In this document: one piece after another, positions 600 to 62,666 of the stretch | How positions within the stretch are numbered: the first letter of the stretch is position 1 | Layout: the number at the start of each line of letters is the position of its first letter | Assembly: GCF_037042905.1 (NCBI RefSeq) | Contig: NC_087245.1 | Span: forward strand, 13,642,001 to 13,706,000 | Source: Lytechinus pictus | Lineage: Eukaryota | DNA length: 64,000 nucleotides | Direction of reading: 5' to 3' | Notes under the pieces: generated by a model | Seen by the model: only the letters and a program-made list of their open reading frames with translations | Database searches by the model: none | Told to the model about the DNA's origin: nothing | Made by a program: the position numbers and the translations under genes

Positions 600-1093
600 A
601 TAATGTCATCGATCAGGACCTGTCACCTGGAGCCTCCCTGAGTTGGGTTGGAACAACCTTTGTCATATTAGATCTATCCACAGTCAGCTGTAGCTCTCTC
701 GTCTACTTCTGCATCTTGGCTGAAAGGAACCCCGACTCTCAGAGAAAAGATCTATCACCTCTTAATTTCGATGTTAACTCGTACATCGTTTGTGAGCAGA
801 TAGAGTGTGTGGGGCTTGAGATCGACACACTGACACTTACCCACAACGCAGATCAAGGTGACCCTCTGCGGGAGTTGGTAACCGGCAACCAGGACTTCTA
901 CTTGGACCTGACCATTGATCCTCTTTCGACCAGCGGCGGTGTGTCGGGTAACTGGACATTTGATGTCTACTTCAGTGACATGCAAGACTGTTCGAGTACG
1001 CCTACCAGTCTTCCGACCATTACTGTTGTTCCCTCAATGAAACAAATCTACCAAGACGTGGATGGACAATTGGTCACAATTGAAGGGATTCAA
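600..1093 (+). CDS. Exon 1: C-half of repeat R0 and N-part of R1
   Basis: cag|AT...CAA|gtaagt; DNVIDQDL...CEQIECVGLEIDT...IEGIQ. Confidence 0.85.
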
Positions 1094-37000: not shown

Positions 37001-37969
37001 ATTAACCAAACCTTTTTGTTTTATCAATGTTTTGTTATTCCACAGGTGTCCGGGTGGAGAGCTTGTTCATAAACTTTATGAGTGGATTACCACTTCTGGA
37101 GCTTACTGCTTCACATGAAGTCAACTTCACTGTAAGTTCTCAGTTCCAACTACTCATAATTATTGCCACCAAGACATTTTTTATGAATGAGCTTTAATTC
37201 CCTATCAATTTATCAAATAGCAAGTCTAATGCCAGTTAGAAGTGCCCCTAGCTAGAATAAACAGTTCTTGAACTTTGGTTGCCCTGGCGACCGGTATAAG
37301 GACCTAAACGCCAGAACACTACTCATTTGTATGTTCAGTACCAACCATACATATTTGAAAGATGCCTGCTGAGTGTTTCATAAAGTTGTTCATAAGTTCT
37401 GCATGGCTTAACACATGACTTGTTATGATTTTGTGTGTAAAATCCCATACCCATCTGTATACTGTTCCTTGTTTTAATGTAATACCAGTAAACTTTCTAT
37501 AATTCTAATAAAATCTTGTCAAATAACAAATTTTGCTTTCAAATGCCTGCTAGCAATGAGAATTTCAATCTAACTAGTTAAGAATTTAGCTTTAGCCGAT
37601 GAGAATACAATTGATTGAGAATCTGATTTTTGCAAACCAAAGGATCACCAGTCACACATAGGTCATTTGTAACTTGAAACAGCCATTGGTTGAGTATTCT
37701 CAGATATGGAAGAAATGATTTCTCATTCTAAAGAAAAAGTTTGTGTCAGGGTTAATTAGGAGATTCCTTGGGTCCATTGTCCCTGAAATTGCACATTTGA
37801 CTTTGAACTGCATCCCGCTCGCAAAAGATTGTTCACTTGATGAGAATAATGATGATGATGAAACATAATGATGGCAATAATACAAATAATGACAATAAAA
37901 GTAATGATGATGATAAAGATGATGGTGACAATGATCATCATGATAATGATAACGGTGATGATGATGATT

Positions 37970-38007
<38 letters not shown>

Positions 38008-47000: not shown

Positions 47001-50000
47001 TTCATAAGTGGGCGAGACACTAAATCGCTTTTGCCTTGTTTACATTTAGTACCAAACTAGGTGATGTCATAGAATATTCAGTATTTTCGTGACCAAAATT
47101 TTGTAGAGCATGATGAGAAACCTCCACTGAGCAAATTTGACGCCAATTGCTTTTAAGGCAACATTAATACCTATTTAGACTCACTGAGGTAATATTGTAA
47201 TTTTGGCTGTTCAATGTCAATGGATCAATGTGGGTATTCATGTGGCCATACCATGCACCCCTATCAGCCAATTCCTATTTAATTTGGTCTGTGGATGTCA
47301 ATCATCATGCAGTATTACATGTGTTCACATGCAAGGTAAAAACTGAGATTCAAAAATCAATTTTCTAATTGCGATTATATAACATCAATTCAATTGTGTG
47401 TATGGACAGAATAATCTGACTAATGATTGCAGTTCTTATCACGATTCAACTATGATTTTTCAGAGTAATTATTTACTGAGCACTTTGTTTGTGAACGAAA
47501 TTGTGATTAGAAAATCAGTTTTATCTCCCATCATTCTTTGCGGGTGTGTGCTCAATATGCTGTTCATGTACTATGCAGTGTGTGTGTGTTACGTTAGGGG
47601 ATGCATGCAGTGTATAGCATGGATGCACTCCACATTACCTTGGAGCTGTTGATCCCATTTAGTATTAACAAATGCAGTCTATGATAGTACATACATGTAA
47701 TCATTTATCATTTGATTAATGAGTTTGTTGCCCTACTTTGTTTAGCCTTTTTACTGTCAAAATGTATTTTGCCCTGTCTAGTATAACAATTCTATAAAGT
47801 TAAGTGGAGATAATCTCGGCAGTTTGGCCTATTTCTGTTGCTTTCTCATGTGTATGAATGGAAACAAAAATTTATTGAAATTTTGATTTTAATTGCAATT
47901 CATGTCGCTATCATAATCTCGCTTTTTCCCGTGTGTGAACGGTGGCTATAAAATCAAAATTTCAGTCGTGATTCAAATTTCAATATCTTTTGTGTGTGAA
48001 CAAGCCTATTGAAGCATGGTATCCAAAATGCAAAAAAAAATTTAAAACTTCTTTGAGGTGGAGGGGATGACATCATCCTTTCAGTACTCTATATGATGAT
48101 ATCCTCTTTCTTTATCATTTCCTTATTCATTGGTATGTATTCATAATTTTCCATCTTCATCCTGTGTCCCCCCTTTCCATTTTTTCAGTACTGCTAATAT
48201 TACAATCACATCACCTCCTTTCTCTTCTCATATCTCCCTTTCCCAAAATTTTCACCTCCCTTTTACTTCGAAGTCTTTAAGCAGATATTCATATGGCGTC
48301 GTACAAATGCTGTGATTTTTTTTTTTTCCGTATTTTATTCAGATCCTTCATGTCCTGCCCTTGAAGTCCCCACTGATGATGTCACATCCACGGAGATCAC
48401 TGTCACATGGCCCAGACCAGAAGGCTGTTCCAACGTTGTATCTTACTCCCTCAGCATCGCACCAGACACCGATGTGACTTTTATTTCAGATATAGCCAAT
48501 CCGTTTACATGTAGCAGCCCAACTGCTGATGCGTACAGGGCTGTTTTCTCCTCACTCACACCAGCCCAATCATATGTGATAGAGGTCAGGGCTAATGCTA
48601 GGTATGGTCCATCGAGTCCCCCAGGCTGTAATTCTAGAACTGTTGTGGCAAGTAAGTACTGTAGGCAATTATCCCTTCCTTATTATTCAATGCTTGAAAT
48701 AAACAGATTTATATGCAAACTAGAAATTCATTACTAATTAAGTTCAATTCCAAATGGTAAACTAGAATACTTTTTTGCAGCAAAATGTTTAAAACAATAA
48801 TTAACGATACCAAGGATAAATAACTTTGTGTCACTTGGTCATTGGTCACTTGATCAAATCCAGGTGTACATGCTATTTAATCAAGGGTATAATAGACATG
48901 TTATATACATTGAAAAATGAAAATATGCAAGTATATATATGTAATGAGTTACATAATCTTAATTTTTCATGCAATTCGTCAGAAAGAGAGCAGTACCTAG
49001 AAAGAGCAGTAAAAAAAACTTCAGTTCAAAAGTGTACCCTATTTTTGATATATTAAGATTATAAACTTGGTTTGCTAACAACCCCACCCCCCTTCCCTCC
49101 CCGAATCCACTCATCTAATGCTCCAATCAAGAATGTGTTTGGAGATGGTATATTCATTTAGGTTAAAAACAGATTAAGACTGATGGAGCAAATAAATGCC
49201 AGATAGATACTGTATGCCCTCCATTATGTTTGTATACACAATATATTGATCCAAGGGAAGTATATTAAAAAGTAAATGAGTATGGTCAAGTGTGTCTGCA
49301 TATCATATTTGTTCAACTCTGAAAACAGGATTATTTTACTCATATGTTTGTATCTTTTAATTTGTTTCCTGGAGAACTATCATTGACAATACCATATACA
49401 TGTATGAAATTTCAGAACAAGGTTTTTTAAACAGTAGTGTACAAAAATGACATGAGCATCATCAGTGAAGTTAAGTTATATATGTATCTACTTTGAATGA
49501 TTTCCATCCACCTTTTCTATTTAAGAGCCCGGAGCAGTTGAGCTTCAAGTGAATGCCTTCAACAGCACATCAGTGAGCCTTGGCTGGAACAGTCCACTAT
49601 CGGTCACTCCTGATGGCTACATGCTGACCATTGACATCCTATCAGCAGTACCCGATGCCGCCCCAGCTCCTGTTGATTTCCCTGGAACGGACACGGCTTA
49701 TGTGGTGTCCTCTCTGCTGCCCGGTGTGGAGTATTCATTCACTATACAAGCATACCAGAGTGTCCAGGCTATACTTTCCTTCGGGATAGCAGATACAGTC
49801 ACGCAGCGAACAAGTAATGGTTAAGGGATTTGAGTGATTTAAAACTAGGGATGTGATATTGCAAAAGTTATTTTCCAGAGGAATGATTTCCCAAGATGAA
49901 AGATATGCAGGAAATAAGGATTTAAAGATAAATATTCTTGTTTATGAGATCGGATTTTTGAAGGGACCCTCCTAAAGTGATTGTGAATTGTTGATAATAG

Positions 50001-53000
50001 AGCACCTAAAAATTAAGATGTGAAATCGTCAAATAGATCAGTAATAATTAAATCATCAAAAGAACCTCAAAACTCACAATGATAGATTCCACCTTTCCCC
50101 GCTGCAGGTGTTTTCCTTTGATTATTTAAGTATTTAATTATTTTCATTCTAATTCGCAGATATTATCAATATTTCTTGCACATGTGACGAGACTTGCTTA
50201 CTAAAGTAAAGTGATTCCTTTTAAGTATTAAGTCTAATTTAAAGTGGCACTTATTTATTGCTCTACTTATAATTCATGCTGTAAATAGCACAAGAAAAAT
50301 GCTGGTGAATTGATGCATTCATTGGTTGATTGTTGATGATGCTACCAACAATACAATCCTTCATATATTAATTTATCTTAAATTTCAATACTTTTTTATT
50401 TGTCAGCCCCGGTCCCACCTCAAAACATTGTGATCGACGCAGCCGAAACATCAGTAACCATCACCTACGAAGCCCCTCCTGGTTTCCATAGTTCCTTCAT
50501 TCATTCTCTCCTTGATGTTAATGAGAACTTGTTGAATGGTCCAAATGCCACATATGAATTCACTGTGGAGTACACAGGCTTGACCGCTGGAACCCTGTAC
50601 ACCTACAGAGTACTTACCATGGCAGGGTCAGCGACGAGCGAAACAATTCAACGGACTTTCACTTCTCGTAAGTACCAATTAAGTTATCTCGCAAGTTAAC
50701 TATTACAGCTAATCCTATATAGCTTCAAAACATTTTCTTATTTCAAATGGATGAGTGATTTATTGCTTTAAAGATGCTTCATGGTTGTTCACTCGTTGAC
50801 TCTTTTGTACACACAGGTCCTAGCCCTCCGAGGGAACCGCAAACAATATTCGTGGATGAGTCAACGATCACCATCGTGTGGGAGCATAACATCGGTCAAC
50901 GTGATGAGTACCAAGTCTCCTACACTCCGATGGGCGATAACACTCAACCGCAGTCACCACAAGCTCTGAGTGAGAATCGATTCACCCTGACAGGCATAGA
51001 TCCATACACTACCATAGATTTTAACGTAACCACCATAGTAAACTCTGTGCATAGCATCCCTGCAACCTGGAGGCAAAGGACCGTTGCCACAAGTAAGTTC
51101 ACTCATTTTATTATGTAATAATAATATAGGGTATTTATATGCGCACATATCCACCTTGTTAGGTGCTCAAGGCGCTCCTATATTACCCGGCTAAGCTAGG
51201 CGTTCATAGCGCACACAGCTTTTTAAGGAATTACTTCCTACCGGTACCCATTTACCTCACCTGGGTTGAGTGCAGCACACTGTGGATCAGTTTCTTGCTG
51301 AAGGAAATTATGCCATGGCTGGGATTCGAACCCACGACCTTCTGTTTCAAAGTCCGAAGACTAATCCACTGGGCCACAACGCTCCATTATGTGTAGCTGT
51401 ATGAGACTCTGATATATTTTAAATCAATTTGTAGTGGCTTTCCGATGGTGCATTCAACTTGTACTGTTAAGTGTTAATATTGAACTTGATTAGAAGCATG
51501 AGCGGATAGGAGGCTGAATATCTTAATGAATGGATGTGTGGATGGATGAATAAATGAACAAAAGAATGAATACATTATTGAATAGATAGATATAAGAATT
51601 GTTAGATGAATGTATTAATTGATTATTAAATGAATGGATGAATACATGAATGAAAGAATTGTATAGTTATTTGATTAATCAGTGAATAAGATAGCATACC
51701 AATCTCGTCTTTTTTGTCTAGGGCCTGATCCTGTACAGAATCTAATGCTTGTGGTTACCTCACCCAGCTCAGTCAATGTTATCTTCAATGTCCCCGACAA
51801 GCCTAATGGTTTTATCACTGGATATCTTATCTCCTATATTGGAACAAGGAGTGTGAGTATCAAAGTTTCTAGCAAGTAGGTCTTATACCAATTAGTTTAA
51901 CTCCCAGACTGTCCCATATCACTTTGGTAAAACCTTTTTGATCTGCTGTTAATTTGTCAAAGTCACGCTACTTGCAGCAGCAGAAATTACTTAGCATTCA
52001 TCGACTACTTTTATCAATCTGTCACTATATTGTTTCTTTGAATCATTGTAAAACTAGGTAATTTCCTTCATATTATATTTGGGTCTTGTTTCGTTACTTT
52101 AAGGAAAAAAAAGATTTAAGAGATGTTATATGTTTGAAGATATTTGGACCTCATCATCATTGTTTGTTTCTTTTGTTGTTTTATAAAATTCTCATCAGCA
52201 TAGTATTTATAGCCAGGGTGGTTAGTTTTCTCCATACGAAGAATTCATGGGTATTCATTTCCCTCTTACTCTGAAAGTATTTGTTACCTTTAACCACTGA
52301 ATGATCCTTGACCTTTTGCCACTTAAACAGGATGGTACTATTAGCAGCGGAAACCAGATCTTCTCTGATATCCACCCGAATGATGTCCGCATTGAAGTTC
52401 TGATTGCAAATCTTGACCCAGGAGTTGTGTACGAATTCTTTGTAAGTATTACCTCATTGTCAAGTATCCCATTTTGTACATTTATCGATGAAATAATGAC
52501 AAAATTATTTAATTGGATATTATAATTTTGCATGTTCCCCTACGCAAGGTTTTAAAAAAACCTCCAATATTGCCATGACTGAATGCCTCAGTGATTACCA
52601 ACAGGGAATTTCTTCCTGCCAGTGCCAATTTTCACCCTGTGGGAGAGGGGCAAATATTGATTCTTTTGTTGCAAAATTACATTGTTTCTTCATTTACAAG
52701 GCACATGAGAGTGGGAGTAGTGTCAATATTTCATTCCTTCTAATTGTTCAGTGTGTTGATCTTCATTGTTTTTTTATTCTATAGTTTCTTGAGTGGTAAA
52801 CCCATTTTCTGCTCTTTATAATGTTTGTATCTAGAAATTAGAGTATGCTCTTATGGCACTGAACACTTTGGTTGTTTTCAATTACTTTTTACATATTTAT
52901 TAGTGACCTTTGACTTGAAGCATTTGACCTTTTTGTTCTTAAAGGCATTTGACCTGTTACTTTTTAATGGTATTTGAAGTTTTGTTTTTTACATGACCTT

Positions 53001-56000
53001 TGATCGTTTCGTTCTTAATGGCCTTTGTCCTGATTGTATTTAATGATATTGGCTCTGTTGTTTCTTAATGACCATTGACCTGTTAGTTCTTAATGGCCTT
53101 TGAACTTTTTTGTTTGATGACATTTGACCTGTTTTTGTATAATTATTCAGGTACAAGCTGTGAATGATGAAGGAACAAGTGATGCAGAAAGTGGGCTAAT
53201 CACTCTCGTTGCTGGAGGTTAGTGTTCTCCTTTTATGTACCACCATCATTAAACTCTTCATTTGTCCTCTTTTTTATTTTTGTAAAGAAATTACAGATCT
53301 ATCTGATTTGCATTCATTATGTAGTGCCAATATGGCAGCTGCAGCACTTTGAAACTCTTCAGGGGTCTCATGATTTTTTTTGGGGGGGGGAGGGGGGGTT
53401 CTGTTTTAGGAGGATGTTATTGAATTATCTAAAATTACTCATCATTTAAAATATTTTTTAAATGATGATTTCAGTAGTCTACGACTCCATGTGTGTCTTA
53501 ATGGTTAGATACCAGAGCTCAAAACAAAGAGAAATTATCAGCTGATGACATTGTTATCACAGCAGACAGTAAGAATTACCAAAAGAAATGAATGTTACTA
53601 GTATGATTCATCAAAATATTTGTGTTATTAATGAAAAGATGTTTCATTTAAGTTTTGATTGTGGATTATTTTTTTAGATCCTGTGCCCTCTGGGAATACT
53701 GTCAGTAATTTAGGTCAAACAGTGTCATCCACGGCGACTACTATCACCATCGTAATCACCGATAACCTCTTCTCTGATGTGAATGGCTTTGTGATTGCTT
53801 TCCAGGTCTTTGTAGTAGAAGATCACGGTATGTATGTGCTTTCCAAGACTGACTGATGATCTGAACTTTCAGGTTTGGGATTTCATGCCCATGAAAATGG
53901 TGGATGAACTGGGTGTTTCTTTGAAATAAAAATTTATATAATGTATCCAAATTACAATCCCTCTAATCAGTCTGTATATGTAAGTTAAAGGTTAGCATTG
54001 CGGTTCGAGTCTATAGTAAGGTTAAATTTTAAACATGAGACTTACAACAACTCATAGGGGTTGGAGAGATAGCTGAATAGATTTATCGACTTGATATTGT
54101 TGCATGCAGCCAAGAAAATTAGAGTAACTGTAAAGAGTGAAATTTCATCTAAGTATTATTTTCTATCTATGTGCTGCCAAGAAAATTTGTTGATTATAAT
54201 CTCATTGTCATACACATTAACAGCAAGCATCACAGACCGGACAATCAGTGACCCACCCAGACGATACCAAGAGGTCCGAAATCTACCAATTCGCCTAGTT
54301 TATGTGACATCACCCCTCTTTGCGCCAACCCCACGATTCAGCGGCCGTCGCAAACGTCAGATTGCTGACACACGTACTTCTTTCACCATCGGTACAGAGA
54401 CTGAATGTGTTTCTGAGGACAGCATATGTAATGGCCCTCTTGAGCCTCTGACATCCTACAGGTACTAATAGTGTTTCATCGGGGGTTGTTGCAAAAAAAT
54501 GCAATCAATTCCATTTTAGGTAATGAAATCATTTATAGTCTCACATACGGTTACATAAGATTCAGTCCTGGACACAGGATCATCTGTTCCTCTATGTCCA
54601 GCTCCTGGTGATATACAGTATGTGGCATCTGAAGAATTGGCGCGGTCCGGGGGAGGAACGCTATAATCAAATTTAAATTCTGCATTACGCCACCAAATAT
54701 CAATCCTCTTTACAAATTGTAATACATCCCTAGATTCTACTACAAACTCGGGAAGACAATTCCATAAGTTGCAGATTCTCAACATGTATTCTTATTAGCC
54801 CAAGTCTTTAAAAGCTTTTACACATGACCCTTTGTACTGGTGAGAGAATTAAGTTGCAGACACAGGGCAACATCAGGGTCATATTTGTGGAGAATCTTGT
54901 CTTGCATCATCATCATCATCATCACCATCATCATCATCTATGTCAGTCATCGTTGTCCTGCTTACAAAGGGTTACTGTCTTTCGCATCATGATGGCACGC
55001 CCTCCTTTCACTTCTTTCCGTCTTGAGCATCCTCCTCGTTCAAACCAATCTTACTTCTTTTCTCCCTCACCAAATTCATCCACAGTACTTCACTGATACA
55101 TGAAACTGAAAGTAATGAGCCTTCATATCAAAGAGAAGGCACCTTACCAAAATTCTGTGCTAAACTTTTCTGTCTTTTGTCAGAAACCTCTTCAGCCTTC
55201 GTTCCATTTTAACCTTCAAATATGATGATAATATTTGTCCATTTATATAGTGCATTAACTAAATGCATATACTCTACTACGCCTGATACTTGGTGTCATA
55301 TTATTAGCCCGGCTTTAGTGGAGTCGCCATATGGATGCTCAAGCGTTCAAAGGAATAAATCATAACGGGTACCCATTCACCTCACCTGGGTCGAGTGCAG
55401 CACAATGGGGTAAATTTCTTGCTGAAGGAAAACACACCATGGCTGGGCTTCAAACCCACGTCCCTCTGATTGAAAGATGAGAGTCATAACCACAAGATCA
55501 CAAAGCCCCTGTATCACCATATCAATATCACAATAAACAAAGCAATGTAGCTGCTATGAAATCCTAGATATGGTGAAGACGATGAACACTGTTCTGATTG
55601 TGGTCCTTTATTTTTTTCCAAACTGATGTTTATTGATGTCTCCCAATTTGTTGACAGGATTCTTGTTCGAGCTTACACCGATGGTGGCTTTGCAGACTCG
55701 CCTTGGTCTGATCCTATCTCTACAAGTAAGTCAATATCCTTACCAACATACTTTGGCAAAATGAAGAAAGAATATAAGTGTACTATGCTTTGAAAAGCAA
55801 AATGAGACATGTTACATAGATGCCCATGCACTTGCAAGAAGGTTAACAAGCCATTACTCGTAGCAGGATCAGTGTTTTTCACCAAAATTTGACATTTGAC
55901 ACTATAAAAGTGTCTCTTGCTTCCTTTTGTCAAAGTAAGGCAGTATAGAGTTCAAAATATTTTAAGATCTTAATATATTCTGGACAAAGCAACCTTTTAG

Positions 56001-59000
56001 TTGAGGTTGGCTCACAACATACATTAATATCATTGTCTAGCAATCTTGTTTCTTAACAAAATAGATCTCTTATAATTTTGGTGGTTTTAAAGTGTAATTT
56101 ATGCACTTATTCATTGATGCACTGTAACCATTTCACTATTACTTATTACCTATGAGTTTTATCCTAAGTTAACTCCAATTGCCAGAACCTCTTTCTCTCT
56201 CTCTCTTTTAAATTTTCTTTGATCACATTTCATTTCATTGTTGTATTGTATATTTATATGATAGAAGTATTGGATTCCTGGTTCACCATCCCCATCATCA
56301 TCTATGGAGTCATCATCTTCTTCATTATGATATTCCTCATCCTATGCTGCCTTTCAGCTGGTCGTCATCGTCGTAAGAAGGTCAAGAGGTAAATGAATAA
56401 TCACTTTCCATGAAAAAATAGTCTTCACAGCATTGATATGATTTGTCATAGATTTAATGGAAAATACACAAAGATTAAATATTCATATTCATTCACATAT
56501 AATGAATATCTGCCATTGACTTTCATAGAAAAGTTGGTATTTGAATACCACGTGGTAGGAATATTCATGATGCATTTCGATTTTTCTTTAATGACCATAA
56601 AAAGATGCTTTATAATTTACAAGGAAACTAGAAATTAGACTTCAGCTTTAAGATTTCAGTTTAATTTAATGATCTTTGTGTACTTTGTGTAATTACTATA
56701 CACAGTCTGACTGCCCTATATATGAGAGCTCCTGACCTTGATTTATCACAAATTGAGTCGTTCATGCAGTGTAGTAAGAATGAAGAAATATTTGGGTTGA
56801 ACATAGTCATCAAAAGGTCAATAAATTTATTGAATAACCCCGGTGTATTTTTACAGCGTTGTCATAGTTATGATGTACATGTGTAACAGCTCTTGATAAA
56901 AAAAATTGTCAAAGAATTTATGATGTATTGGAATGACAAAGTGACATAATAATAGTGATGAATAATAATTGGCTTGATATAGCGTGATTCCAGACTATGA
57001 CTGCTCAAAGCATTTATTAACAATTATTTTGTATTTGTCTTTGCTAGCTCACCTGGACCAAGGAAAGCACGTGGCTTCCACTCACCCAAGCAAGAATCTC
57101 GGTTCAATGATAATCACAACAACTCTTCATACAGACACCCAAAGCATAGCAAAGCACCTCCTGCTATCCTCTCACGGTGAGTCAATATTTTAGCTCTTAA
57201 AGATAAATACCAGTTGTGGTAATGATCTCAAAATGAGTTCGAACAGAATCCAATGAAATGACCACCAAAGTGTTTGTATGTATAGATAAAAAATTATGTG
57301 CCAAATAGATCTTAAAGAAAATGCGTAATTGCTGAGAAATGAGCAAAATAAGCACGGATATCCATTAAATGTCGGGTATTTTTCGAAGCAATATTAATAC
57401 ATTGTTCCACATATGCTTTTCCATGTTAGTGATCATCAGAATTATCAATTTTTGAGCTAAGATTTCATGATTTTACAAAGATAATTTACATTAATGTACC
57501 AGATCTAGATGTATTATGATATTTTGACAATTAACCTTGGTTTAAAAGACTTTCTCATGAAATTATTCTTTGCTGCAACTACTGTCCTTTACCTTTAAAG
57601 CCCATGAAAGATTATACTGGTCTGCAGATCTAAAATGTCAAATCGCCTGCCTTGAGTTTAAAGATAGGTATGTGAGAAAATCAGGCATTTCACTCATGAT
57701 TTCTTACGAAATTAACTATATTCTTTCACTATTGCCCCTTTGGCTCCAAGCATATGAATGTGTGAATAGAGATTTAAACACTCGAACAAAGATTGATGTT
57801 ATTACTAATGAAGGCAGTGATATTTTAATCTTACAGGCCTGTTCTGAGTTCTCAGTTTGCTCTTCACTACAATGAGATGATTGCCAACAAACAGCACAAG
57901 TTTACCTTGGAGTTTGATGTAAGTTGACAATCTAATTGATGGTAGGGGTTACGATGAGATGGAAGAGGAGGAGGACGATGATTATGTTGGTAATGATGAT
58001 GATGATGATGATGATAATGATGATGATGATGACAACGATGATGATGACAACGATGATGACGACGATGAAAATGATGATGGTGATGATGACAACGATGATG
58101 ATGATGACAATGATGACGGTGACGATGAAAATGATGATGATGATGAGGATAATGAGGATTATGATAATGATTATGATTGTAATTGTGATGAGGAGGAGGA
58201 TGTTGATAATGGTAATGGTGATGCTGGTGATGGATATGATAATGATTTGTATTTGAAGACACATGATTTTGATATTTCTGCTGGATATTTGTAGATCCTT
58301 ATGAGAATAATAACAATAATGAGTAATGAAGATGGCAAATTCGTTTTAGTTTTATCATGCATAAAAATATTTTGTGAGCTAAATTATGTTCCCATTATAG
58401 ACATTAAGTTCGTATTTCTCCATGCTATTCTAAGATCTCTCATATTGCAAGATTGATAAATGATAGGATAAATTATCTCTTTAAAATGTCTTTTCCATCA
58501 CTCAGGATCTTCGGAACATTGGTCAAGACTTGTCAAAGTCAGAAGGAAGACATTTGGAAAATAAAAACAAAAACAGATTTGGAAACATCTTGCCGTGTAA
58601 GCAATATTTCCTATTCTATCCCTTCTTCTTCGAAAGTATTTTATCACTGTTTCTATTTCCATCTTTTTAATTCCTTCTCTGTGTATGTCTACATCATTTT
58701 TTTACTCTATACAGCTTCTTCCTATGTTTTGAACAGCAAAACTACAAAAAAAGCGTGTGAAGTGTTATAAAAGCATTACTGTTCGAAAGAAATAGTCATC
58801 ATTATTAGTCATAAGCGAATTTTCCTGTGGGCTAAAATGAATGCCTGGACATTTGATAAATTCAGCCTATCATTTAGTTTAAATCCATATCCCTATTTTA
58901 TAATATCTCTTTATTATTATTATTATTATTTTATTCGGCATTTCAACAAAAACAGTTTACAATCAATTTACAAGAGAATATCCAATTACAAGTGAAAAGG

Positions 59001-62000
59001 GATGTTTACAAAACAAGTCCTGGTTGCCTGGAAAAGGAAAAAGTTAAATAAATAACTGTAGCCCGCAGGCTTTCCTCCCCGACCTGGACTTGTATGTTAA
59101 CACCCCAAGAATAAAAACATATATATAGATTATTATATTAATACAAACAATAATTCATATAGAAAAAGCATATTGAAATTGATTTGTATAAGAACAATCA
59201 AATATAGTGTGATTAGAAACGTAATTACAGGACAACTTAAAGAAGGTGTAGTAAATTGGTATTTAGATATACATTTAAATTGGCCAGGTAAATATAAACT
59301 TTAAAATGAAGTACATTGTATTGGGAAAGATGTATAAGCAGTAATCATTATACATCTTATTCAAATAACTCAGACCGTAAGCTTCGTAGCCATGGATTTA
59401 AAGATCTGCAGACCAGGACAAACTCGTTTCGTAGACTAGGCGTTAATTCCTCCCACACTCTTGGGAAGTAGTGGATTGGGGAGCAGTGCAACCTTTGGGT
59501 CCTAGCCAGCAGGTGTCTGAACAATAGATTTTCTTGATGATGGTCATTAATGATTGTTTTGGAGATTATAATAATAGAATCAATTTGTCTGTACAGGGAC
59601 TTGGCAAAAAACGAAATCAATAGAAATTTGCGTCTAGTAGCCAGTGTTGGCCATTCTAAAATACGAAAACGGTCTGCTTTAACACCATACGGGTGGCTCT
59701 CCTTTGCAGAGACTCAATTCTGTATCCATGATTGAAAATCAGAAGGCCTGAACTAAAAAACAGTGATTTTGAGAAAGAGGTGGTTGCTAATTTTCTGTCA
59801 ACCATATCTATTGAGATGTGACAAAGTGTTATTTTGTTACCAAAATCTCAAAATGGTCAAAAAGTGAGTCAAGTCCTTTTGCATATCAACCCTTGATATG
59901 ATTTCTCTCAAACTTTCCTTCCATTTGAAATCTTCAGACAATGAAACCAGGGTGTCACTCAGTGGATCTCAGGATTACATCAATGCAAGCTTTATCTCTG
60001 TAAGTACATGTCTGTAATGATGATTTCAAGTGTCAGTGTTAGTTTTAGTGTTGATTTTGGTGTTGAGAACTTAAATCTGGCTGCCTAGTCTAGCTCCAAT
60101 ACTGGATGTTGGTTAATTATGATACTTATCATACAATCAATAGCTTAAGACCGTGTGATATTAGTCCTAGCAATAGCCCTTATTTCAGCTTTGGTACTGT
60201 GGCTGGTGATGTTCAGATAACCCAACACCTTCCCCTGCTGTCAACACCAAGCTTTAAAGCTTTAAAGTCTCATGATAAAACTATCATGCAGACTCACCTT
60301 GACAAATGGCTTTCGATTTCTTTACTATGCAAGAGCTTGTAACCCCGACCCGGGCGTCTCGGACATTGTTGGTGACTTAGTGACCCTTGGCTATTTTTCA
60401 GAGGGGAATATCATGCCTGGTTAAATAGTCAGCCATGTAGTAGTAACACTGAAATTATACATGTATATGCATTTCATCATCATTGCCCCTGAAGTGAGAT
60501 GCTCTCCTATGTTTTAAGTGTCACACTGTTGTACCATCTTCAAGTATAATTTGGAACAAGTCAGGATAATTGATTTAACCCTAAACAAGCAAAAGCTTCT
60601 TATTGGTACTATAACTCATACCCAACATACAACAACAAATTTCTGACATATGTCAAGGATTAAGTATCCCAGACAACATTCAAGACACTTCTTCCTCCCT
60701 AACACATATACCTTTTGATTCTTCATTTGTCATTTTTATGGCGATTAACTTGAGAACTTCTTTTGGTATGACACCAGGGTTTCAACAAGGCCAAGGAATA
60801 CATCACTACCCAAGGACCAATGACAAACACTGTCAATGAGTTCTGGAGGATGGTTTGGGAGAAGGAATGCCCAGCCATTGTCATGCTGGTTCGCTGCATT
60901 GAAGGTGGCAAGGTGAGTTAATAGGTTTCCAAGAAAATGGTGGTGGTGGTGGTGGACATAATGAAGATGATGGAGTGATGAATTGGGGGGGGGGGGTGAT
61001 GTTGTTTGTATTTGTGGAGCGTTGTGGCCCAGTGGATTAGTCTTCTGACTTTGGAACAGAGGGTGGTGGTTCGAATCCCAGCCATGGCGTAATTTCCGTC
61101 AGCAAGAAATTTATCCACATTGTGCTGCAATCAACCCTGGTGAGGTGAATGGGTGAATGCATGAGCGCTGAAAGGCAGCTCGAGCTAAAGCTGGGGTAAT
61201 AATAATAATAACATCGCGCCTTGGAATAGAATATTTCTAGATAGATGGCGCTATATAAATTTCTATTATCATTATTATTATTATTATTAATGGTGTAATG
61301 TGTCATGTTGATGGATGATGGAAATGATGATGGTGTTGGTGATGAAGATGATAGAGGTTATGATGGTAGGGTGATGATTAATTTATGGCTGGACTGTTGT
61401 GTCAAATATGTTGATACTTTACTCTCAAAGTATTTAGGTATGCTTAATGTGAATATGATATGAAAATTCCCATGGTCCTGATAATCAACGCCATGTTTTG
61501 TTAATTCTTTGCAGGAGAAGTGTGATAAGTATTGGCCAGTCAGTGCAGATCCAACTGTCTTTGGTCAGGTGATTGTTACCAAGCTCGCAGAACACAACCA
61601 TGATAGCTGGGCCATCAGAGACTTCAGACTCAAAGTGGTACGAGTTGTTTCTATTAATTTTCATTGCCATTCTAAAATGATTAATAGCTTGTTGATCATT
61701 TACAATACTCCAAATATAAATAAGCCTAGTTTGTGTTTTAAGCTTAGGTTTACTTTGTACCTTCCTTTCTTGAATGGGTCACATAATATTCACTCATTGG
61801 GGGGCATTTAATAAAACAAATTAGTCATTGATTTTCAGTGATTTGTTTGTTGTAAGCTACTAAAATCATTGCATTTGATTGGTTCAAAATAACTAAGCCA
61901 GTGAAAATCACTTGATTTCTTCATGAAACCCTCCTCGTGATAATTTTAGGAACTATTCAGAATCTTCTTACTGCAGAAACTGGTTGGATTACTAAACACG

Positions 62001-62450
62001 TCATCAGACCCAAGGATTACTCTGATTACAGTGATGACCAGACTTTTCACTAGAATAGTTAATCTGGTCTGACATATTTTACATCTTTGGGCTTGTATTA
62101 ATGAACAAAGATATAAGTCAGGAGTTGGGGGTGGCACTAGGGTTCCCATATTGATGCAAACGCCACTGTTTTCCTGAGGGGCACCCCTGAAGGAAAATTG
62201 TCACATTCATGTCACATCTCATTCCATTTTGTTCATTGCTAATTCAGACAAAATCAGATATTTTAGTTGATTCACCTTCCTTTGCCTCATGACAGGGAAA
62301 TGAAGAACGTCTGCTTCGTCAATACCACTTCATTGCCTGGCCAACCCACAGCACACCCAAGGTTAGCAGACCAGTGCTAAGCTTTGTGAAAAACATCAGA
62401 GACGAGTTAGCATCGGCCAAGCTCAAAGGACCACTTGTCATCCATTGTGG
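600..62450 (+). CDS. Giant receptor-type protein tyrosine phosphatase (R3/PTPRQ-like) gene, partial at both ends, 60 exons: >=24.5 unfamiliar Cys-containing repeats + 6 FN3 + juxtamembrane domain + TM + PTP domain
   Basis: All 60 exons have AG/GT boundaries and compatible phases; summed length 13,381 nt with no stop; PTP motifs KNRF, DYINAS, TQGP, FWRMVWE, IVML, KCDKYWP, VIHC; hydrophobic TM followed by basic residues. Confidence 0.9.
1932..2061 (+). CDS. Exon 2: end of R1
   Basis: cag|GTG...AAAG|gtaagc; VKVDLSRFACSSAPYMC...YNCK. Confidence 0.85.
2249..2394. mobile_element. Short palindromic MITE
   Basis: Terminal inverted repeats GGGCCCGTTGCAGAAAGA ... TCTTTCTGCAACGGGGCCC. Confidence 0.6.
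2389..2656. mobile_element. MITE; a related copy lies in opposite orientation at ~14755-15020
   Basis: GGGCCCTGTCTTACAA ... TTGTAAGACAGGCCC inverted ends; internal sequence matches the reverse complement of 14755-15020. Confidence 0.6.
4027..4723 (+). mobile_element. Non-autonomous Helentron-associated (HINE/DINE-1-like) element, family A copy 1
   Basis: T-run, subterminal IR GTCTCGCCTGCAT with adjacent short IR, internal ~120 bp repeats, ATGCAGGCGAGAC, short hairpin and CTTGTT end; second copy at 26901-27544. Confidence 0.65.
4777..5013 (+). CDS. Exon 3: R2 N-part
   Basis: cag|GA...ATAG|gtaatc; GINLVADS...GPLWTASFFFS. Confidence 0.85.
5538..5738 (+). CDS. Exon 4: R2 C-part
   Basis: cag|AT...CACG|gtaagt; TCANMQWLCV...ACLQITECH. 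Confidence 0.85.
5787..6365. mobile_element. Non-autonomous DNA transposon with TTAA target duplication and AGG...CCT ends (Kolobok-like)
   Basis: TTAA-AGGACAAGTCCA ... TGGACTTGACCT-TTAA; long imperfect TIRs. Confidence 0.7.
7070..7397. mobile_element. MITE with CAGGGTTCC termini (hAT-like)
   Basis: CAGGGTTCCCACAG ... CTGTTGGAACCCTC; subterminal GTCATGGAA repeats. Confidence 0.55.
7560..7789 (+). CDS. Exon 5: R3 N-part
   Basis: cag|GT...CAG|gtgggg; GVEIEET...SGINLWSLEIF. Confidence 0.8.
8142..8340 (+). CDS. Exon 6: R3 C-part
   Basis: cag|GAA...AAAG|gtaagt; PCALNNYLCV...ACVNLNCK. Confidence 0.85.
9173..9388 (+). mobile_element. Short HINE-like element
   Basis: T-run + ATGCCCG ... CGGGCAT subterminal IR, AGGTCAAAGGTCA core, hairpin and CTTGTT end. 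Confidence 0.45.
9785..10101 (+). CDS. Exon 7: R4 N-part
   Basis: cag|GA...GAT|gtgagt; GIIVTD...GLWQLDVF...QLCMD. Confidence 0.85.
10609..10723 (+). CDS. Exon 8: R4 C-part (absent from ORF track)
   Basis: tag|GTA...GAGA|gtaagt; VNYLCVRIREGVNPSPMVTLQYSTGPENFIGCAPVTCE. Confidence 0.85.
11403..11804 (+). CDS. Exon 9: complete repeat R5
   Basis: cag|CT...GCTG|gtaagt; 402 nt, phase 1-1. Confidence 0.9.
12147..12526. mobile_element. MITE with 13-bp perfect TIR and 6-bp flanking direct repeat (hAT-like termini)
   Basis: TATCTA-CAGGGTTCCCAGC ... GCTGGGAACCCTG-TATCTA; subterminal TCAGGGAA repeats. Confidence 0.7.
12643..13019 (+). mobile_element. tRNA-derived SINE, family 1
   Basis: A box TGGTGTAGTGG, B box GGTTTGAATCCC, body CCACCCAGGTGCTAAATGGGTACC, (ATT)n tail; other copies near 16800 and 23180. 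Confidence 0.85.
13285..13484 (+). CDS. Exon 10: R6 N-part
   Basis: cag|GT...CTG|gtaggt; GIALNST...GTDLWNFTVFLS. Confidence 0.85.
13582..13952. mobile_element. piggyBac-like MITE
   Basis: TTAA-CCCTATCCAGGCC ... GGCCTAGATAGGG-TTAA. Confidence 0.75.
14053..14229. mobile_element. Foldback MITE (possibly PIF/Harbinger-type), copy 1
   Basis: Near-perfect ~65 bp inverted arms TTTCATAAAGCTGTTCGTAAGTTAAGAGCGACTTTAAGAA...; CAG/CTG flanks; second copy at 44562-44740. Confidence 0.75.
14271..14490 (+). CDS. Exon 11: R6 C-part
   Basis: cag|ACC...CGAG|gtgaga; LEAGTP...GCVDFQYICV...GCAPVDCR. Confidence 0.85.
14755..15020. mobile_element. MITE related to 2389-2656
   Basis: TCTTACAAAGAG ... TCTTTGTAAGA inverted ends and shared internal sequence. 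Confidence 0.55.
15104..15511 (+). CDS. Exon 12: complete repeat R7
   Basis: aag|GT...ACAG|gtgagg; 408 nt, phase 1-1. Confidence 0.9.
16088..16213 (+). CDS. Exon 13: R8 N-part
   Basis: cag|GT...ATAG|gtaagc; GAVIDDVSL...SASI. Confidence 0.85.
16797..17080 (+). mobile_element. Degenerate SINE family 1 copy
   Basis: Similarity to 12643-13019 (CTCCACCAATGTG..AATGGGTACCC; AATGCTCTCCAGGGA; ATCTGTAAAGTGCTTA). Confidence 0.6.
17091..17363 (-). mobile_element. Degenerate tRNA-derived SINE, family 2
   Basis: Matches 51116-51385 (CCATTTACCTCAC..GGTTGA.TGCAGCACA..AAATTTCTTGCTGAAG). Confidence 0.65.
17413..17703 (+). CDS. Exon 14: R8 C-part
   Basis: cag|AT...AGAG|gtaaat; NIWQIELY...VCITVPCR. Confidence 0.85.
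18365..18781 (+). CDS. Exon 15: complete repeat R9
   Basis: cag|GG...ACTG|gtaagt; 417 nt, phase 1-1. Confidence 0.9.
19583..19785 (+). CDS. Exon 16: R10 N-part with RRRR site
   Basis: aag|GT...ACG|gtaaga; GVYIST...DLWKLTILICENDNCAASARRRRAT. Confidence 0.85.
20995..21232 (+). CDS. Exon 17: R10 C-part
   Basis: cag|AAT...AGAG|gtaagt; NPNALVEI...YLCV...TCQPLQCR. Confidence 0.85.
22209..22613 (+). CDS. Exon 18: complete repeat R11
   Basis: tag|GT...ACAG|gtacat; 405 nt, phase 1-1; GVHIQSS...SGTNLWDIEIF...ACFEYPCT. Confidence 0.9.
22890..23135 (+). CDS. Exon 19: R12 N-part
   Basis: tag|GT...CCTG|gtaggt; GVLVSAT...DAWHIQVF. Confidence 0.8.
23178..23470 (+). mobile_element. SINE family 1 copy
   Basis: TGTAGTGGTTCTGACTCTCGCCTT, TTTGAATCCCACCA and CCACCCAGGTGCTAAAT shared with the 12643 copy. 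Confidence 0.75.
24646..24828 (+). CDS. Exon 20: R12 C-part
   Basis: cag|GC...ATTG|gtaaga; YCANVNYLCV...ACTAVDCI. Confidence 0.85.
25329..25480 (+). CDS. Exon 21: R13 N-part
   Basis: tag|GA...AAG|gtcaga; GVRINSS...VSGTNIFGVK. Confidence 0.8.
26319..26607 (+). CDS. Exon 22: R13 C-part
   Basis: tag|ATC...AGGG|gtatgt; IFLSNDG...SCPPMLYLCA...ACEIVECR. Confidence 0.85.
26901..27544 (+). mobile_element. HINE-like element, family A copy 2
   Basis: Colinear with 4027-4723, including the GTCTCGCCTGCAT / ATGCAGGCGAGAC IRs and CTTGTT end. Confidence 0.65.
27642..28040 (+). CDS. Exon 23: complete repeat R14
   Basis: tag|AT...AAAG|gttggt; 399 nt, phase 1-1. Confidence 0.85.
28690..28923 (+). CDS. Exon 24: R15 N-part
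   Basis: cag|TA...GTTG|gtgagc; VTEIDSS...GDELWRIV. Confidence 0.85.
29291..29479 (+). CDS. Exon 25: R15 C-part
   Basis: cag|GC...CAAG|gtaatt; DCASMPYLCV...ICKENVRCQ. Confidence 0.85.
30046..30362 (+). CDS. Exon 26: R16 N-part
   Basis: cag|GT...AGG|gtaggt; GIVITNN...PWMVTIF...LVCPQR. Confidence 0.85.
30609..30720 (+). CDS. Exon 27: R16 C-part
   Basis: tag|GAT...CACG|gtaaga; DIYLCAEFNKNASRESDFTLDFQSPSVRYAMREVACH. Confidence 0.85.
31667..31941 (+). CDS. Exon 28: R17 N-part
   Basis: cag|GC...ATG|gtatgt; GVEISST...SGADLWSFLIY. Confidence 0.85.
31877..32106 (+). repeat. Diverged local tandem duplication (offset 126 bp) of the 3' end and donor of exon 28
   Basis: 31877-31980 aligns without gaps to 32003-32106. 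Confidence 0.85.
32497..32647 (+). CDS. Exon 29: R17 C-part
   Basis: cag|GTG...AGAG|gtaaga; ECIEMPYLCM...DCFMLDCR. Confidence 0.85.
33180..33409 (+). CDS. Exon 30: R18 N-part
   Basis: aag|GT...CAG|gtatta; GVYIDEF...SGSNLWEIF. Confidence 0.85.
33745..33860. mobile_element. 116-bp hAT-type MITE with perfect 8-bp TSD
   Basis: ATCATTAT-CAGTGGCGGACCGTGACCCGGAGGAGACAAAG ... CTTTGTCTCCTCCGGGTCACGGTCCGCTACTG-ATCATTAT. Confidence 0.85.
34309..34498 (+). CDS. Exon 31: R18 C-part
   Basis: cag|GAT...AGAG|gtatgg; TCENVMYLCF...SCVPIDCR. Confidence 0.85.
34914..35327 (+). CDS. Exon 32: complete repeat R19
   Basis: cag|GG...ATAG|gtcagt; 414 nt, phase 1-1. Confidence 0.9.
35660..35900 (+). mobile_element. 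Degenerate 3' end of an L2/CR1-group LINE
   Basis: Remnant coding GDGTFTVAS...ESFKKSLKTFLF followed by an (ATT)-rich tail. Confidence 0.5.
36016..36435 (+). CDS. Exon 33: complete repeat R20
   Basis: cag|GT...AGAG|gtatgt; 420 nt, phase 1-1. Confidence 0.9.
37046..37131 (+). CDS. Exon 34: R21 N-part (absent from ORF track)
   Basis: cag|GT...ACT|gtaagt; GVRVESLFINFMSGLPLLELTASHEVNFT. Confidence 0.8.
37845..38010. repeat. (GAT)n imperfect microsatellite
   Basis: Direct reading. Confidence 0.9.
38043..38358 (+). CDS. Exon 35: R21 C-part
   Basis: cag|CTG...AATG|gtaata; GEDLWSL...VCDSEFFLCV...VCRSFVCN. Confidence 0.85.
39205..39395 (+). CDS. Exon 36: R22 N-part
   Basis: tag|GT...TCG|gtaagt; GVNLTNA...GRDLWHFEFF. 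Confidence 0.85.
39621..39858 (+). CDS. Exon 37: R22 C-part
   Basis: cag|CCA...GCTG|gtaagt; SCDTPRYLCV...TCRPIECA. Confidence 0.85.
40784..40980 (+). CDS. Exon 38: R23 N-part
   Basis: cag|GA...CCG|gtaagt; GVKFVSV...GENLFQVDVF. Confidence 0.85.
41395..41574. mobile_element. Palindromic MITE-like element
   Basis: GAGTTCACT..GTTGCCAGTTTGCGCCA ... TGGCGCGAACTGGCAAC..AGTGGACTC inverted arms. Confidence 0.55.
41920..42157 (+). CDS. Exon 39: R23 C-part
   Basis: aag|GTC...GCAG|gtaatg; SCSELSYIFV...LQPCA. Confidence 0.85.
42364..42953. mobile_element. Non-autonomous DNA transposon with TTAA TSD and ~190 bp TIRs (Kolobok-like)
   Basis: TTAA-AGGGGTGGTCCGGGCTGAAA ... TTTCAGCCCGGACCATCCCT-TTAA; shares GAAAATTTCATCAAAATC with 5787-6365. 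Confidence 0.8.
43012..43163 (+). CDS. Exon 40: R24 N-part (absent from ORF track)
   Basis: tag|GC...GAA|gtatgt; GIIVNSVIPTLNLGSNNILEGDSAHTFSFSVDVSTGNGIITDGTNEDWQLE. Confidence 0.85.
43229..43366 (+). mobile_element. Internally deleted HINE family A-like remnant
   Basis: GTCTCACCTGCATAGCAG ... ATGCAGGTGAGTC ends only ~100 bp apart. Confidence 0.45.
44027..44285 (+). CDS. Exon 41: R24 C-part (last repeat)
   Basis: tag|GTG...TTAG|gtaaca; GCDQFRYFCA...GCVSSQLTCL. Confidence 0.85.
44562..44740. mobile_element. Foldback MITE, copy 2 of 14053-14229
   Basis: Same inverted arms; CTG flanks. Confidence 0.75.
45257..45526 (+). CDS. Exon 42: FN3 domain 1
   Basis: cag|CA...CTAT|gtacgt; LTVEWEP...FTGLTPGNNYTVSI. 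Confidence 0.9.
45591..47041 (+). mobile_element. HINE/DINE-1-like element with a central tandem array
   Basis: T-run, GTCTCGCCCAC with adjacent IR, (GTCC)n microsatellite, 8 tandem units, GTGGGCGAGAC, hairpin, CTTGTT end. Confidence 0.7.
45663..46912 (+). repeat. Tandem array of 8 units of ~157 bp (144-162 bp)
   Basis: AACTC anchor recurs at 45673, 45830, 45988, 46145, 46307, 46464, 46614, 46758. Confidence 0.95.
48343..48651 (+). CDS. Exon 43: FN3 domain 2
   Basis: cag|AT...GCAA|gtaagt; ITVTWPRP...SSLTPAQSYVIEVRA. Confidence 0.9.
49526..49813 (+). CDS. Exon 44: FN3 domain 3
   Basis: aag|AG...ACAA|gtaatg; SVSLGWNSP...SSLLPGVEYSFTIQA. Confidence 0.88.
50407..50667 (+). CDS. Exon 45: FN3 domain 4
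   Basis: cag|CC...TCTC|gtaagt; PVPPQNI...TGLTAGTLYTYRV. Confidence 0.9.
50817..51092 (+). CDS. Exon 46: FN3 domain 5
   Basis: cag|GT...ACAA|gtaagt; PSPPREP...ITIVWE...LTGIDPYT. Confidence 0.9.
51116..51385 (-). mobile_element. tRNA-derived SINE, family 2
   Basis: Reverse strand A box TGGCCCAGTGG, B box GGTTCGAATCCC, (ATT)n tail; matches 61016-61290. Confidence 0.85.
51722..51852 (+). CDS. Exon 47: FN3 domain 6, part 1
   Basis: tag|GG...AGT|gtgagt; PDPVQNL...PNGFITGYLISY. Confidence 0.88.
52331..52441 (+). CDS. Exon 48: FN3 domain 6, part 2
   Basis: cag|GAT...TTT|gtaagt; IANLDPGVVYEFF. Confidence 0.88.
52904..53135. repeat. Degenerate ~25-bp minisatellite (approx. GCATTTGACCTGTTGTTCTTAATG)
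   Basis: Repeated TTTGACCT / TTCTTAATG units. Confidence 0.65.
53151..53217 (+). CDS. Exon 49: FN3 domain 6, part 3
   Basis: cag|GTA...GGAG|gttagt; VQAVNDEGTSDAESGLITLVAG. Confidence 0.85.
53678..53827 (+). CDS. Exon 50: juxtamembrane extracellular domain, part 1
   Basis: tag|AT...CACG|gtatgt; FSDVNGFVIAFQVFVVED resembles the FSDxNG motif of R3 RPTPs. Confidence 0.88.
54224..54461 (+). CDS. Exon 51: juxtamembrane domain, part 2, with RRKR site
   Basis: cag|CA...TACAG|gtacta; GRRKRQ...FTIGTETEC...CNGPLEPLTSYR (CNGPL motif of R3-type RPTPs). Confidence 0.9.
54540..54785 (-). mobile_element. 3' fragment of a CR1-type LINE ORF2
   Basis: Minus-strand RICNLWNCLPEFVVESRDVLQFVKRIDIWW matches the CR1 C-terminal WNxLP...FKxRLD pattern. 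Confidence 0.7.
55222..55510 (-). mobile_element. SINE family 2 copy
   Basis: GGTACCCATTCACCTCACCTGGGTCGAGTGCAGCACA..AAATTTCTTGCTGAAGGAAA..CCATGGCTGGG. Confidence 0.75.
55658..55725 (+). CDS. Exon 52: juxtamembrane domain, part 3
   Basis: cag|G...ACAA|gtaagt; ILVRAYTDGGFADSPWSDPIST. Confidence 0.88.
56265..56388 (+). CDS. Exon 53: transmembrane helix
   Basis: tag|AA...AAGAG|gtaaat; WFTIPIIIYGVIIFFIMIFLILCCL followed by basic RHRRKKVK. Confidence 0.9.
57048..57176 (+). CDS. Exon 54: cytoplasmic juxtamembrane linker
   Basis: tag|C...TCACG|gtgagt; phase 2-2; SPGPRKARGFHSPKQ...PPAILSR. Confidence 0.75.
57197..57598. mobile_element. Probable TTAA-flanked MITE
   Basis: TTAAAGATAAATACCAGTTGTGG ... 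GCAACTACTGTCCTTTACCTTTAA imperfect inverted ends. Confidence 0.45.
57837..57918 (+). CDS. Exon 55: PTP domain N-terminal (wedge) region
   Basis: cag|G...GAT|gtaagt; RPVLSSQFALHYNEMIANKQHKFTLEFD. Confidence 0.88.
57950..58250. repeat. (GAT/GAC/AAT)n imperfect microsatellite
   Basis: Direct reading. Confidence 0.9.
58506..58596 (+). CDS. Exon 56: PTP domain, pTyr-recognition loop
   Basis: cag|GAT...CCGT|gtaagc; DLRNIG...ENKNKNRFGNILP. Confidence 0.9.
58911..59560 (-). mobile_element. Probable degenerate LINE 3' remnant with (AAT)n tail
   Basis: (TTA)n at 58911 and minus-strand ARTQRLHCSPIHYFPRVWEEL resembling a LINE ORF2 C-terminus. Confidence 0.35.
59938..59999 (+). CDS. Exon 57: PTP domain motifs 2-3
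   Basis: cag|AC...TCT|gtaagt; YNETRVSLSGSQDYINASFIS. Confidence 0.92.
60778..60912 (+). CDS. Exon 58: PTP domain motifs 4-6
   Basis: cag|GGT...AAG|gtgagt; [31 protein letters not shown]. Confidence 0.93.
61016..61290 (+). mobile_element. tRNA-derived SINE, family 2
   Basis: GGAGCGTTGTGGCCCAGTGG A box, GGTTCGAATCCC B box, GCGCTATATAA and (ATT)n tail. Confidence 0.85.
61515..61637 (+). CDS. Exon 59: PTP domain motif 7
   Basis: cag|GAG...GTG|gtacga; EKCDKYWP...WAIRDFRLKV. Confidence 0.9.
62296..62450 (+). CDS. Exon 60: PTP domain WPD-loop region and start of the catalytic signature
   Basis: cag|GGA...TGTGG|gtaagt; RQYHFIAWPTHSTP...GPLVIHCG. Confidence 0.92.
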
Positions 62451-62666
62451 GTAAGTGCAGAGATCAGAAGAGAAATCCTGTCCAAGATTTACCTTAACAC
62501 TCCTTCATTGATTCACTCATCACAGCCAAGTCATTATGTATCTTGCTCTTCAAACCTTCTCTTGCACTGTCTAACTACAGCAGTCACAATGACAAATATC
62601 ACTGGCAACTGTAAAGGATCTTGATAGTCACCAATCATATTGATAGAGAGGCGGCAATTAGGAGCG

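Follow-up and report, generated by a model that had tools for sequence, protein, structure and literature searches.

A Lytechinus pictus R3-type receptor with threonine in place of the catalytic-loop aspartate in its membrane-proximal phosphatase domain

A receptor phosphatase gene with a repeat-bearing ectodomain

The window analysed here is a 64,000-nucleotide stretch of the Lytechinus pictus genome (NC_087245.1, positions 13,642,001 to 13,706,000). It corresponds to a single plus-strand gene, of which about 4,450 residues are encoded inside the window and both ends lie outside it. Counted from the first base of the window, the gene has the following features:

602..44281, plus strand: cysteine-containing repeat exons found by profile search, 25 repeats (24 whole, one cut by the window start); the gene begins before the window
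45253..52428, plus strand: six ordinary FN3 domains, with exons near 45253, 48345, 49525, 50409, 50819, and 51722 plus 52331
53678..55725, plus strand: long juxtamembrane FN3-like domain of the R3 type, in three exons with predicted boundaries
56265..56388, plus strand: transmembrane exon (19-residue hydropathy maximum 3.2), then a basic stop-transfer stretch
57048-57176 and 57837-57918, plus strand: two juxtamembrane exons leading into the PTP domain (open GT-AG model)
58506..58596, plus strand: PTP exon with the pTyr-recognition loop KNRF at 58569-58580; joint 58596->59938 in 4/4 runs
59938..59999, plus strand: PTP exon with Asn at the DxxRV position and DYINAS; spliced in the runs
60778..60912, plus strand: PTP exon with TQGP, FWRMVWE and a conserved Glu, which we take to be at the PTP1B E115 position; Pfam E 7e-16
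61515..61637, plus strand: PTP exon with the KCxxYWP motif; Pfam search and run joints
62296..62450, plus strand: PTP exon that carries the WPT loop and opens the signature motif, ending inside a Gly codon; HMMER, Pfam and runs
62338-62346, plus strand: codons TGG CCA ACC (Trp-Pro-Thr) in the preceding exon, with the Thr codon at 62344-62346
62443..62450, plus strand: CAT TGT GG (His-Cys-Gly), with the nucleophile Cys codon TGT kept at 62446-62448; what follows of C(x)5R is encoded past the window, which ends inside the next intron

The five PTP exons join into 188 open codons through four GT-AG joints, each present in all four runs (contigs X1 and X5, raw reads X21 and X24; two organisms). 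RNA run X21 places 3, 1, 4 and 3 reads over these joints, with the first mate always on the minus strand, as for a plus-strand transcript in a stranded library; the gene is spliced and expressed. Eight exon differences, from a total of at least ten, are listed for organism B, and six of these eight are synonymous, where 33% would be expected for transitions (P = 0.019), which indicates that the gene is under constraint.

The PTP domain comes directly after the helix and two short exons, with 103 residues between the helix end and KNRF in the open GT-AG model, and is therefore the membrane-proximal domain, where activity normally resides (PMC2638020). A second-domain (D2) identity was considered and rejected.

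The extracellular repeats are each about 135-140 aa long and share roughly 20% mutual identity. Their profile was built from 20 repeat exons (alignment A1), and the 40 plus-strand pieces that it recovered resolve into 25 repeat ends. No convincing Pfam family was found for the repeats in the seven repeat exons searched. A structure model of one repeat is an Ig-like beta-sandwich (pLDDT 85.7) whose structural matches are those of a generic beta-sandwich (best Foldseek E 6e-4; best VIA Z 8.7, rmsd 2.9, 108 aligned). In the ESM Atlas, one repeat had no match and another gave only CARDB-like leads below 0.9. The repeats are possibly an unnamed ambulacrarian domain family.

Closer to the membrane, five of the FN3 exons score above the Pfam fn3 cut-off and a half exon at 51724 reaches E 0.018; our own FN3 profile detected no further FN3 exons beyond the six domains. 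The juxtamembrane FN3-like domain matches PTP_tm (PF18861) at E 0.0013, under the family cut-off, and aligns with the same region of the R3-type protein P0001. This latter protein, which has an FN3-TM-PTP layout with WPD and KNRF, gives a 440-column alignment with the final 445 residues of the model (33%, E 1e-78). The gene thus has multiple extracellular FN3 domains (the six ordinary ones), a long juxtamembrane FN3 and a single membrane helix, as R3 receptors do, and departs from an FN3-only ectodomain in its 25 non-FN3 Cys repeats. An acorn-worm protein carrying such repeats is already counted among the R3 receptors (PMC5336234). On these features, we assign the gene as an R3-type receptor with an added repeat array.

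Within the juxtamembrane FN3-like domain, an RRKR stretch (54346-54357, plus strand) is a putative furin site, and basic runs like it occur at the same place in P0001 and in the acorn-worm proteins. The giant ectodomain may be cleaved or shed there.

The catalytic loop reads WPT

A first-pass annotation, made from the letters of the window, had proposed that this PTP domain carries WPT where active enzymes carry WPD. The codons are present as described, and HMMER alignments of the exon to the first domains of LAR and PTPsigma place the Thr opposite the general-acid Asp, without gaps at the loop. The exon itself matches Pfam Y_phosphatase (E 6e-08). The loop holds no acid residue at any other position, and the domain lacks the general-acid Asp that characterizes active classical PTPs.

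Could the Thr be an artefact of an assembly error, a rare allele or a wrongly chosen exon, with a true transcript reading WPD? Few raw reads cover the exon (depth about 2 in X21 and about 9 in X24), and 40 of the 248 base differences of the runs against the window are listed, so that the raw-read runs are legible only in part at this codon, which leaves some room for this explanation. Against it, ACC lies two base changes from GAC, and any one-base change of it yields a codon for neither Asp nor Glu. Moreover, X1 record 6, the organism-A contig (presumed RNA), has no differences across 62295-62450. The contig of organism B, X5 record 13 (presumed RNA), has two across 62295-62447, of which one is synonymous (62379 A>G), and cannot encode Asp or Glu at the codon. 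The two contigs run on for 259 (X1) and 1,279 (X5) bases beyond the exon. The joint 61636->62295 was recovered in 4/4 runs, and the window offers no alternative WPD exon: plus-strand words coding for WPD or WPE are absent near the PTP domain, the four matches in the window all lying at or before 23376. Sequencing error was rejected as the source of WPT on these grounds: two changes are required, X1 agrees with the window throughout the exon, and X5 cannot code for an acid here. For the contigs examined, the explanation by assembly error is already refuted, and we give it next to no chance overall. The WPT observation is real.

Other residues of the active site

The remaining pocket residues were compared with 224 PTP alignments from 152 proteins, comprising the best 150 matches to the WPT exon and two long PTPs; this set is biased toward matches to that exon and is no fair sample of PTPs, a limit that applies to each of the counts below. 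All three of the pocket residues considered, namely the aromatic residue of the pTyr loop, the Glu and the Lys, are kept: Phe stands for the pTyr-loop Tyr in 6/60 WPD-bearing domains, and the Glu and Lys are found in 77/81 and 82/86. The KNRF motif runs on over its exon joint into ILPYNETRV, where Asn occupies a position at which it appears in 0/62 WPD-bearing domains. Two residues past the loop Asp position, Gly is found in 140/162 WPD domains and Ser in the WPT domain.

The nucleophile Cys of active classical PTPs is retained. The last exon ends in CAT TGT GG before a GTAAGT donor, and the residue after the Cys is Gly because its codon starts with GG, whatever the third base. Alignment of the organism-B contig stops at 62447, so that the third base of the Cys codon falls outside it, and neither P-loop nor Q-loop motifs were found on either strand of 62451-64000. 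Gly after the Cys (HCG) occurs in 3 of 95 WPD-bearing domains of the comparison set.

The first-pass annotation had listed KNRF, NxxRV and HCG with a retained Cys alongside WPT as departures from the norm. All of these are present, but KNRF and HCG signal no inactivity: both are found in WPD-bearing domains, and we regard them as tolerated variants and rejected them as inactivity markers. KNRF and WPD also occur together in fly PTP4E, C. elegans DEP-1, Haemonchus and an annelid R3 (PMC5336234 S1 File). The Asn at DxxRV is, from these comparisons, unusual, and PTPRQ has it too. As a separate observation, the proteins P0003 (Trichoplax), P0019 and P0051 have WPD-bearing first PTP domains with HCG, and the last two also have KNRF, plus Ser-Arg replacing Gly-Arg in the P-loop.

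Loss of the loop Asp itself has a different distribution. It is absent from 58 of the 220 domains in the comparison set that cover the loop, 54 of them second domains and four of them fragments without a membrane anchor; Thr stands at this position in two domains, both second domains. Within this set, Asp loss goes with D2-type pseudo-domains.

Relatives and the age of the acid loss

Non-canonical loops have been described in R3 receptors of other invertebrate deuterostomes by Chicote et al. 2017, including WPQ and WSV in Ciona and WPI in an acorn worm, along with two sea urchin R3 proteins that read WVD and WTD and retain the Asp (PMC5336234). The sequence printed for the acorn-worm protein, XP_002737754.1 of Saccoglossus kowalevskii, can be read by eye as about six Cys repeats, seven FN3 domains, a helix and one PTP domain. 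Its repeats follow the same pattern as those of the window, namely Gly-x-x-Leu-Trp, a Cys followed by Tyr-Leu/Ile/Phe-Cys, and a closing Cys pair, and its PTP domain carries KNRY, WPI, HCSAGVGRTG and a Q-loop (PMC5336234 S1 File). The main text of that paper mentions the loop change of the acorn-worm receptor and, in the part consulted, gives neither a description of the repeats nor an activity test.

The two proteins are alike in repeat type, FN3 count (seven including the long juxtamembrane domain), helix, non-acid loop and retained Cys. They differ in that the acorn-worm protein has WPI rather than WPT, a canonical KNRY, Asp at DxxRV and HCS, and in that its repeats are far fewer and accompanied by a Thr/Glu-rich region. 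From this by-eye reading of the printed sequence, XP_002737754.1 is likely the orthologue of the WPT gene. Orthologues or reads with WPD would have spoken against the first-pass proposal; the contigs of organisms A and B instead have no Asp at the codon, and this likely orthologue has WPI. Since a counterpart of the same architecture carries WPI, the acid loss in this gene is probably old, and the simplest explanation is a single loss before the echinoderm/hemichordate split, two losses in the same gene being the less simple alternative.

Database searches yielded no other orthologue. Matching the WPT exon to proteins of 91-2000 aa gave five candidates, none of them orthologous, and among 1.84 billion representatives the best single-exon identity was 53%, with no WPT first domain among the best 150 matches. 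PTPs of 3715-5000 aa provided two matches, neither with WPT in the first domain, while the repeat profile retrieved none from 8,000 candidates and metagenome contigs held two unrelated PTP loci and no orthologue. These missing orthologues are weak evidence, because the full protein is likely above the length limits searched.

The same relatives bear on whether the domain is a decaying remnant without a binding role, the function residing in the ectodomain alone. Several residues are off-norm together, namely the Thr, the Ser two residues on, the Asn and the Gly after the Cys, and tunicate R3 relatives show further P-loop decay. A remnant of this kind is nonetheless hard to reconcile with spliced codons that stay open in two organisms with mostly synonymous differences (among the eight listed of at least ten), with an identity of about 40% to PTPs bearing WPD across the full readable part of the domain, and with an acorn-worm domain that is intact except for its loop (PMC5336234). 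We consider such decay improbable.

Predicted activity and alternative functions

The loop Asp of class I PTPs protonates the leaving group and activates water, and its mutation reduces or abolishes activity (PMC4322731). In PTP1B, the D181A change lowers kcat by about 1e5-fold with affinity little altered, producing a substrate trap (PMC10148153), and a change of Asp to Glu in PTPRK costs about 115-fold (bioRxiv 805119). Near-zero turnover is predicted for the WPT domain because Thr cannot be the general acid and no other acid is available in the loop. Without a protonated leaving group, turnover would be lower by orders of magnitude, as in D181A. The "little or no pTyr activity" of the first-pass annotation is therefore also what we would predict for a membrane-proximal domain that misses its general acid.

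We favour a near-inactive pseudophosphatase that acts as a scaffold or phosphotyrosine decoy, which on the residues present is the probable reading; a catalytic residue has been lost in the membrane-proximal domain, a trait counted among those of receptor pseudophosphatases. Phosphoproteins might remain bound in the pocket and be protected from active R3 paralogues, in line with the proposal for PTPRU, which binds substrates of its active paralogues and shields them (PMC7320164). The long ectodomain of repeats and FN3 domains would place such holding at cell or matrix contacts.

A natural substrate-trapping receptor is a tentative further reading. Here the acid would have been lost and the Cys, Arg and pTyr pocket kept since the echinoderm/hemichordate ancestor, and the receptor would read and shield phosphotyrosine through the active site of its sole PTP domain, much like the D181A trap. 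If the P-loop Arg is lost, pTyr trapping is unlikely, and the Gly to Ser change after WPx-His could distort the loop and weaken binding. The likeness to engineered PTP1B D181A lies in an acid removed and a Cys kept (PMC10148153); unlike the present domain with its further loop changes, that protein is a laboratory mutant of an otherwise intact enzyme.

Known receptor pseudophosphatases offer closer parallels in position. The first domain of PTPRU and the domain of IA-2 (PTPRN) are likewise membrane-proximal or sole PTP domains with a variant loop, presumed in the case of IA-2, and a retained Cys, although these proteins belong to subfamilies R2B and R8. PTPRU also differs in having WPE and a disordered pTyr loop, so that its pocket does not trap, whereas the pTyr loop here looks near-canonical.

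Alternatively, the domain could turn over a special substrate slowly but genuinely, with an acid supplied by the substrate or displaced, or with a good leaving group, which would make the Asp dispensable. The pocket Cys, Glu and Lys are kept in the WPT domain, the acorn-worm protein keeps Cys, Arg and Q-loop beyond the needs of a dead scaffold, and acid-free or substrate-assisted catalysis has been debated for Cdc25 (PMC4322731). This retention is no proof of catalysis, however, as many inactive D2 domains in the comparison set also keep the Cys, and loop-Asp mutants of class I PTPs are impaired as described above. We consider a slow enzyme unlikely.

Motif changes in PTPRQ and IA-2beta indicate that such changes may switch the substrate rather than abolish activity, and the first-pass annotation had suggested that the domain binds phosphoproteins or acts on lipids. 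Of these, the binding role is the one we favour, and the lipid role would have to work without the loop acid (Glu) of PTPRQ. The motifs that the annotation gave for PTPRQ, KNRF and WPE, are correct: human and mouse PTPRQ have KNRF, Asn at DxxRV and WPE (PMC5336234 S1 File). The present gene shares with PTPRQ the FN3-TM-PTP layout, an altered WPD loop, and the pairing of KNRF, by itself unspecific, with an Asn that the WPD domains of the comparison set lack. The acorn-worm protein moreover lies near the PTPRQ cluster (PMC5336234), Ci-VSP D331A retains residual PIP3 activity in vitro, and IA-2beta has lipid activity (PMC9900141).

Yet PTPRQ keeps an acid (WPE) and HCS, and a Cys-repeat array is absent from the descriptions of it consulted. 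Its lipid activity is tied to the loop Glu, reversion of which to Asp abolishes that activity (PMC3765866, PMC4322731), whereas the WPT loop is acid-free and the acorn-worm P-loop is likewise without an acid. The loop-variant phosphatases PTPD1, PTPD2, HD-PTP and PTPRU are inactive on lipids, and KNRF is common in R3 receptors with WPD. One 44-aa PTP exon, a single short one, scores 51.7 and 51.4 bits against DEP-1/PTPRJ, compared with 42.9 against PTPRQ and 42.6 against PTPRB. A PTPRQ-like phosphoinositide phosphatase is thus doubtful, and we would be rather surprised to find one here.

Relation to earlier work

Receptor pseudophosphatases are already known in humans. The sea urchin phosphatase catalogue of Byrum et al. 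2006 and the phosphatome survey of Chen, Dixon and Manning 2017 may list the present gene. Non-Asp loops in R3 receptors of invertebrate deuterostomes, including that of the likely orthologue, are already published (PMC5336234). Our literature search, outside which most subscription papers fell, returned nothing that treats this echinoderm gene or its repeats and no account of WPT in a first PTP domain, and the part of PMC10815196 consulted held nothing relevant. If the favoured reading as a near-inactive pseudophosphatase is true, an invertebrate-deuterostome receptor lineage retains a well-formed acid-less PTP domain in the position that is normally active. It would then provide a natural test of why the PTP fold persists without turnover, and of the steps that take R3 receptors near PTPRQ away from phosphotyrosine catalysis.

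Elements within the introns

The introns, in a window of about 37% GC, contain several repetitive or mobile elements. A LINE-like reverse-transcriptase frame of at least 457 aa, still open, occupies 62628-63998 (plus strand; Pfam RVT_1, E 7.5e-37) and sits in the intron interrupting the PTP signature motif. A very high-copy short interspersed element lies in an intron at 61013-61210, with a summed contig depth of about 1e5 and thousands of RNA reads in both organisms; Rfam gave no matches across 55000-64000, this element included. The intron after the first FN3 exon carries a tandem array (45672-46913) of eight copies with a period of 157 bp and 90% matches. The intron before the first PTP exon harbours a degenerate array of about 90 GAT triplets (57977-58246), which yields spurious poly-Asp and poly-Met frames.
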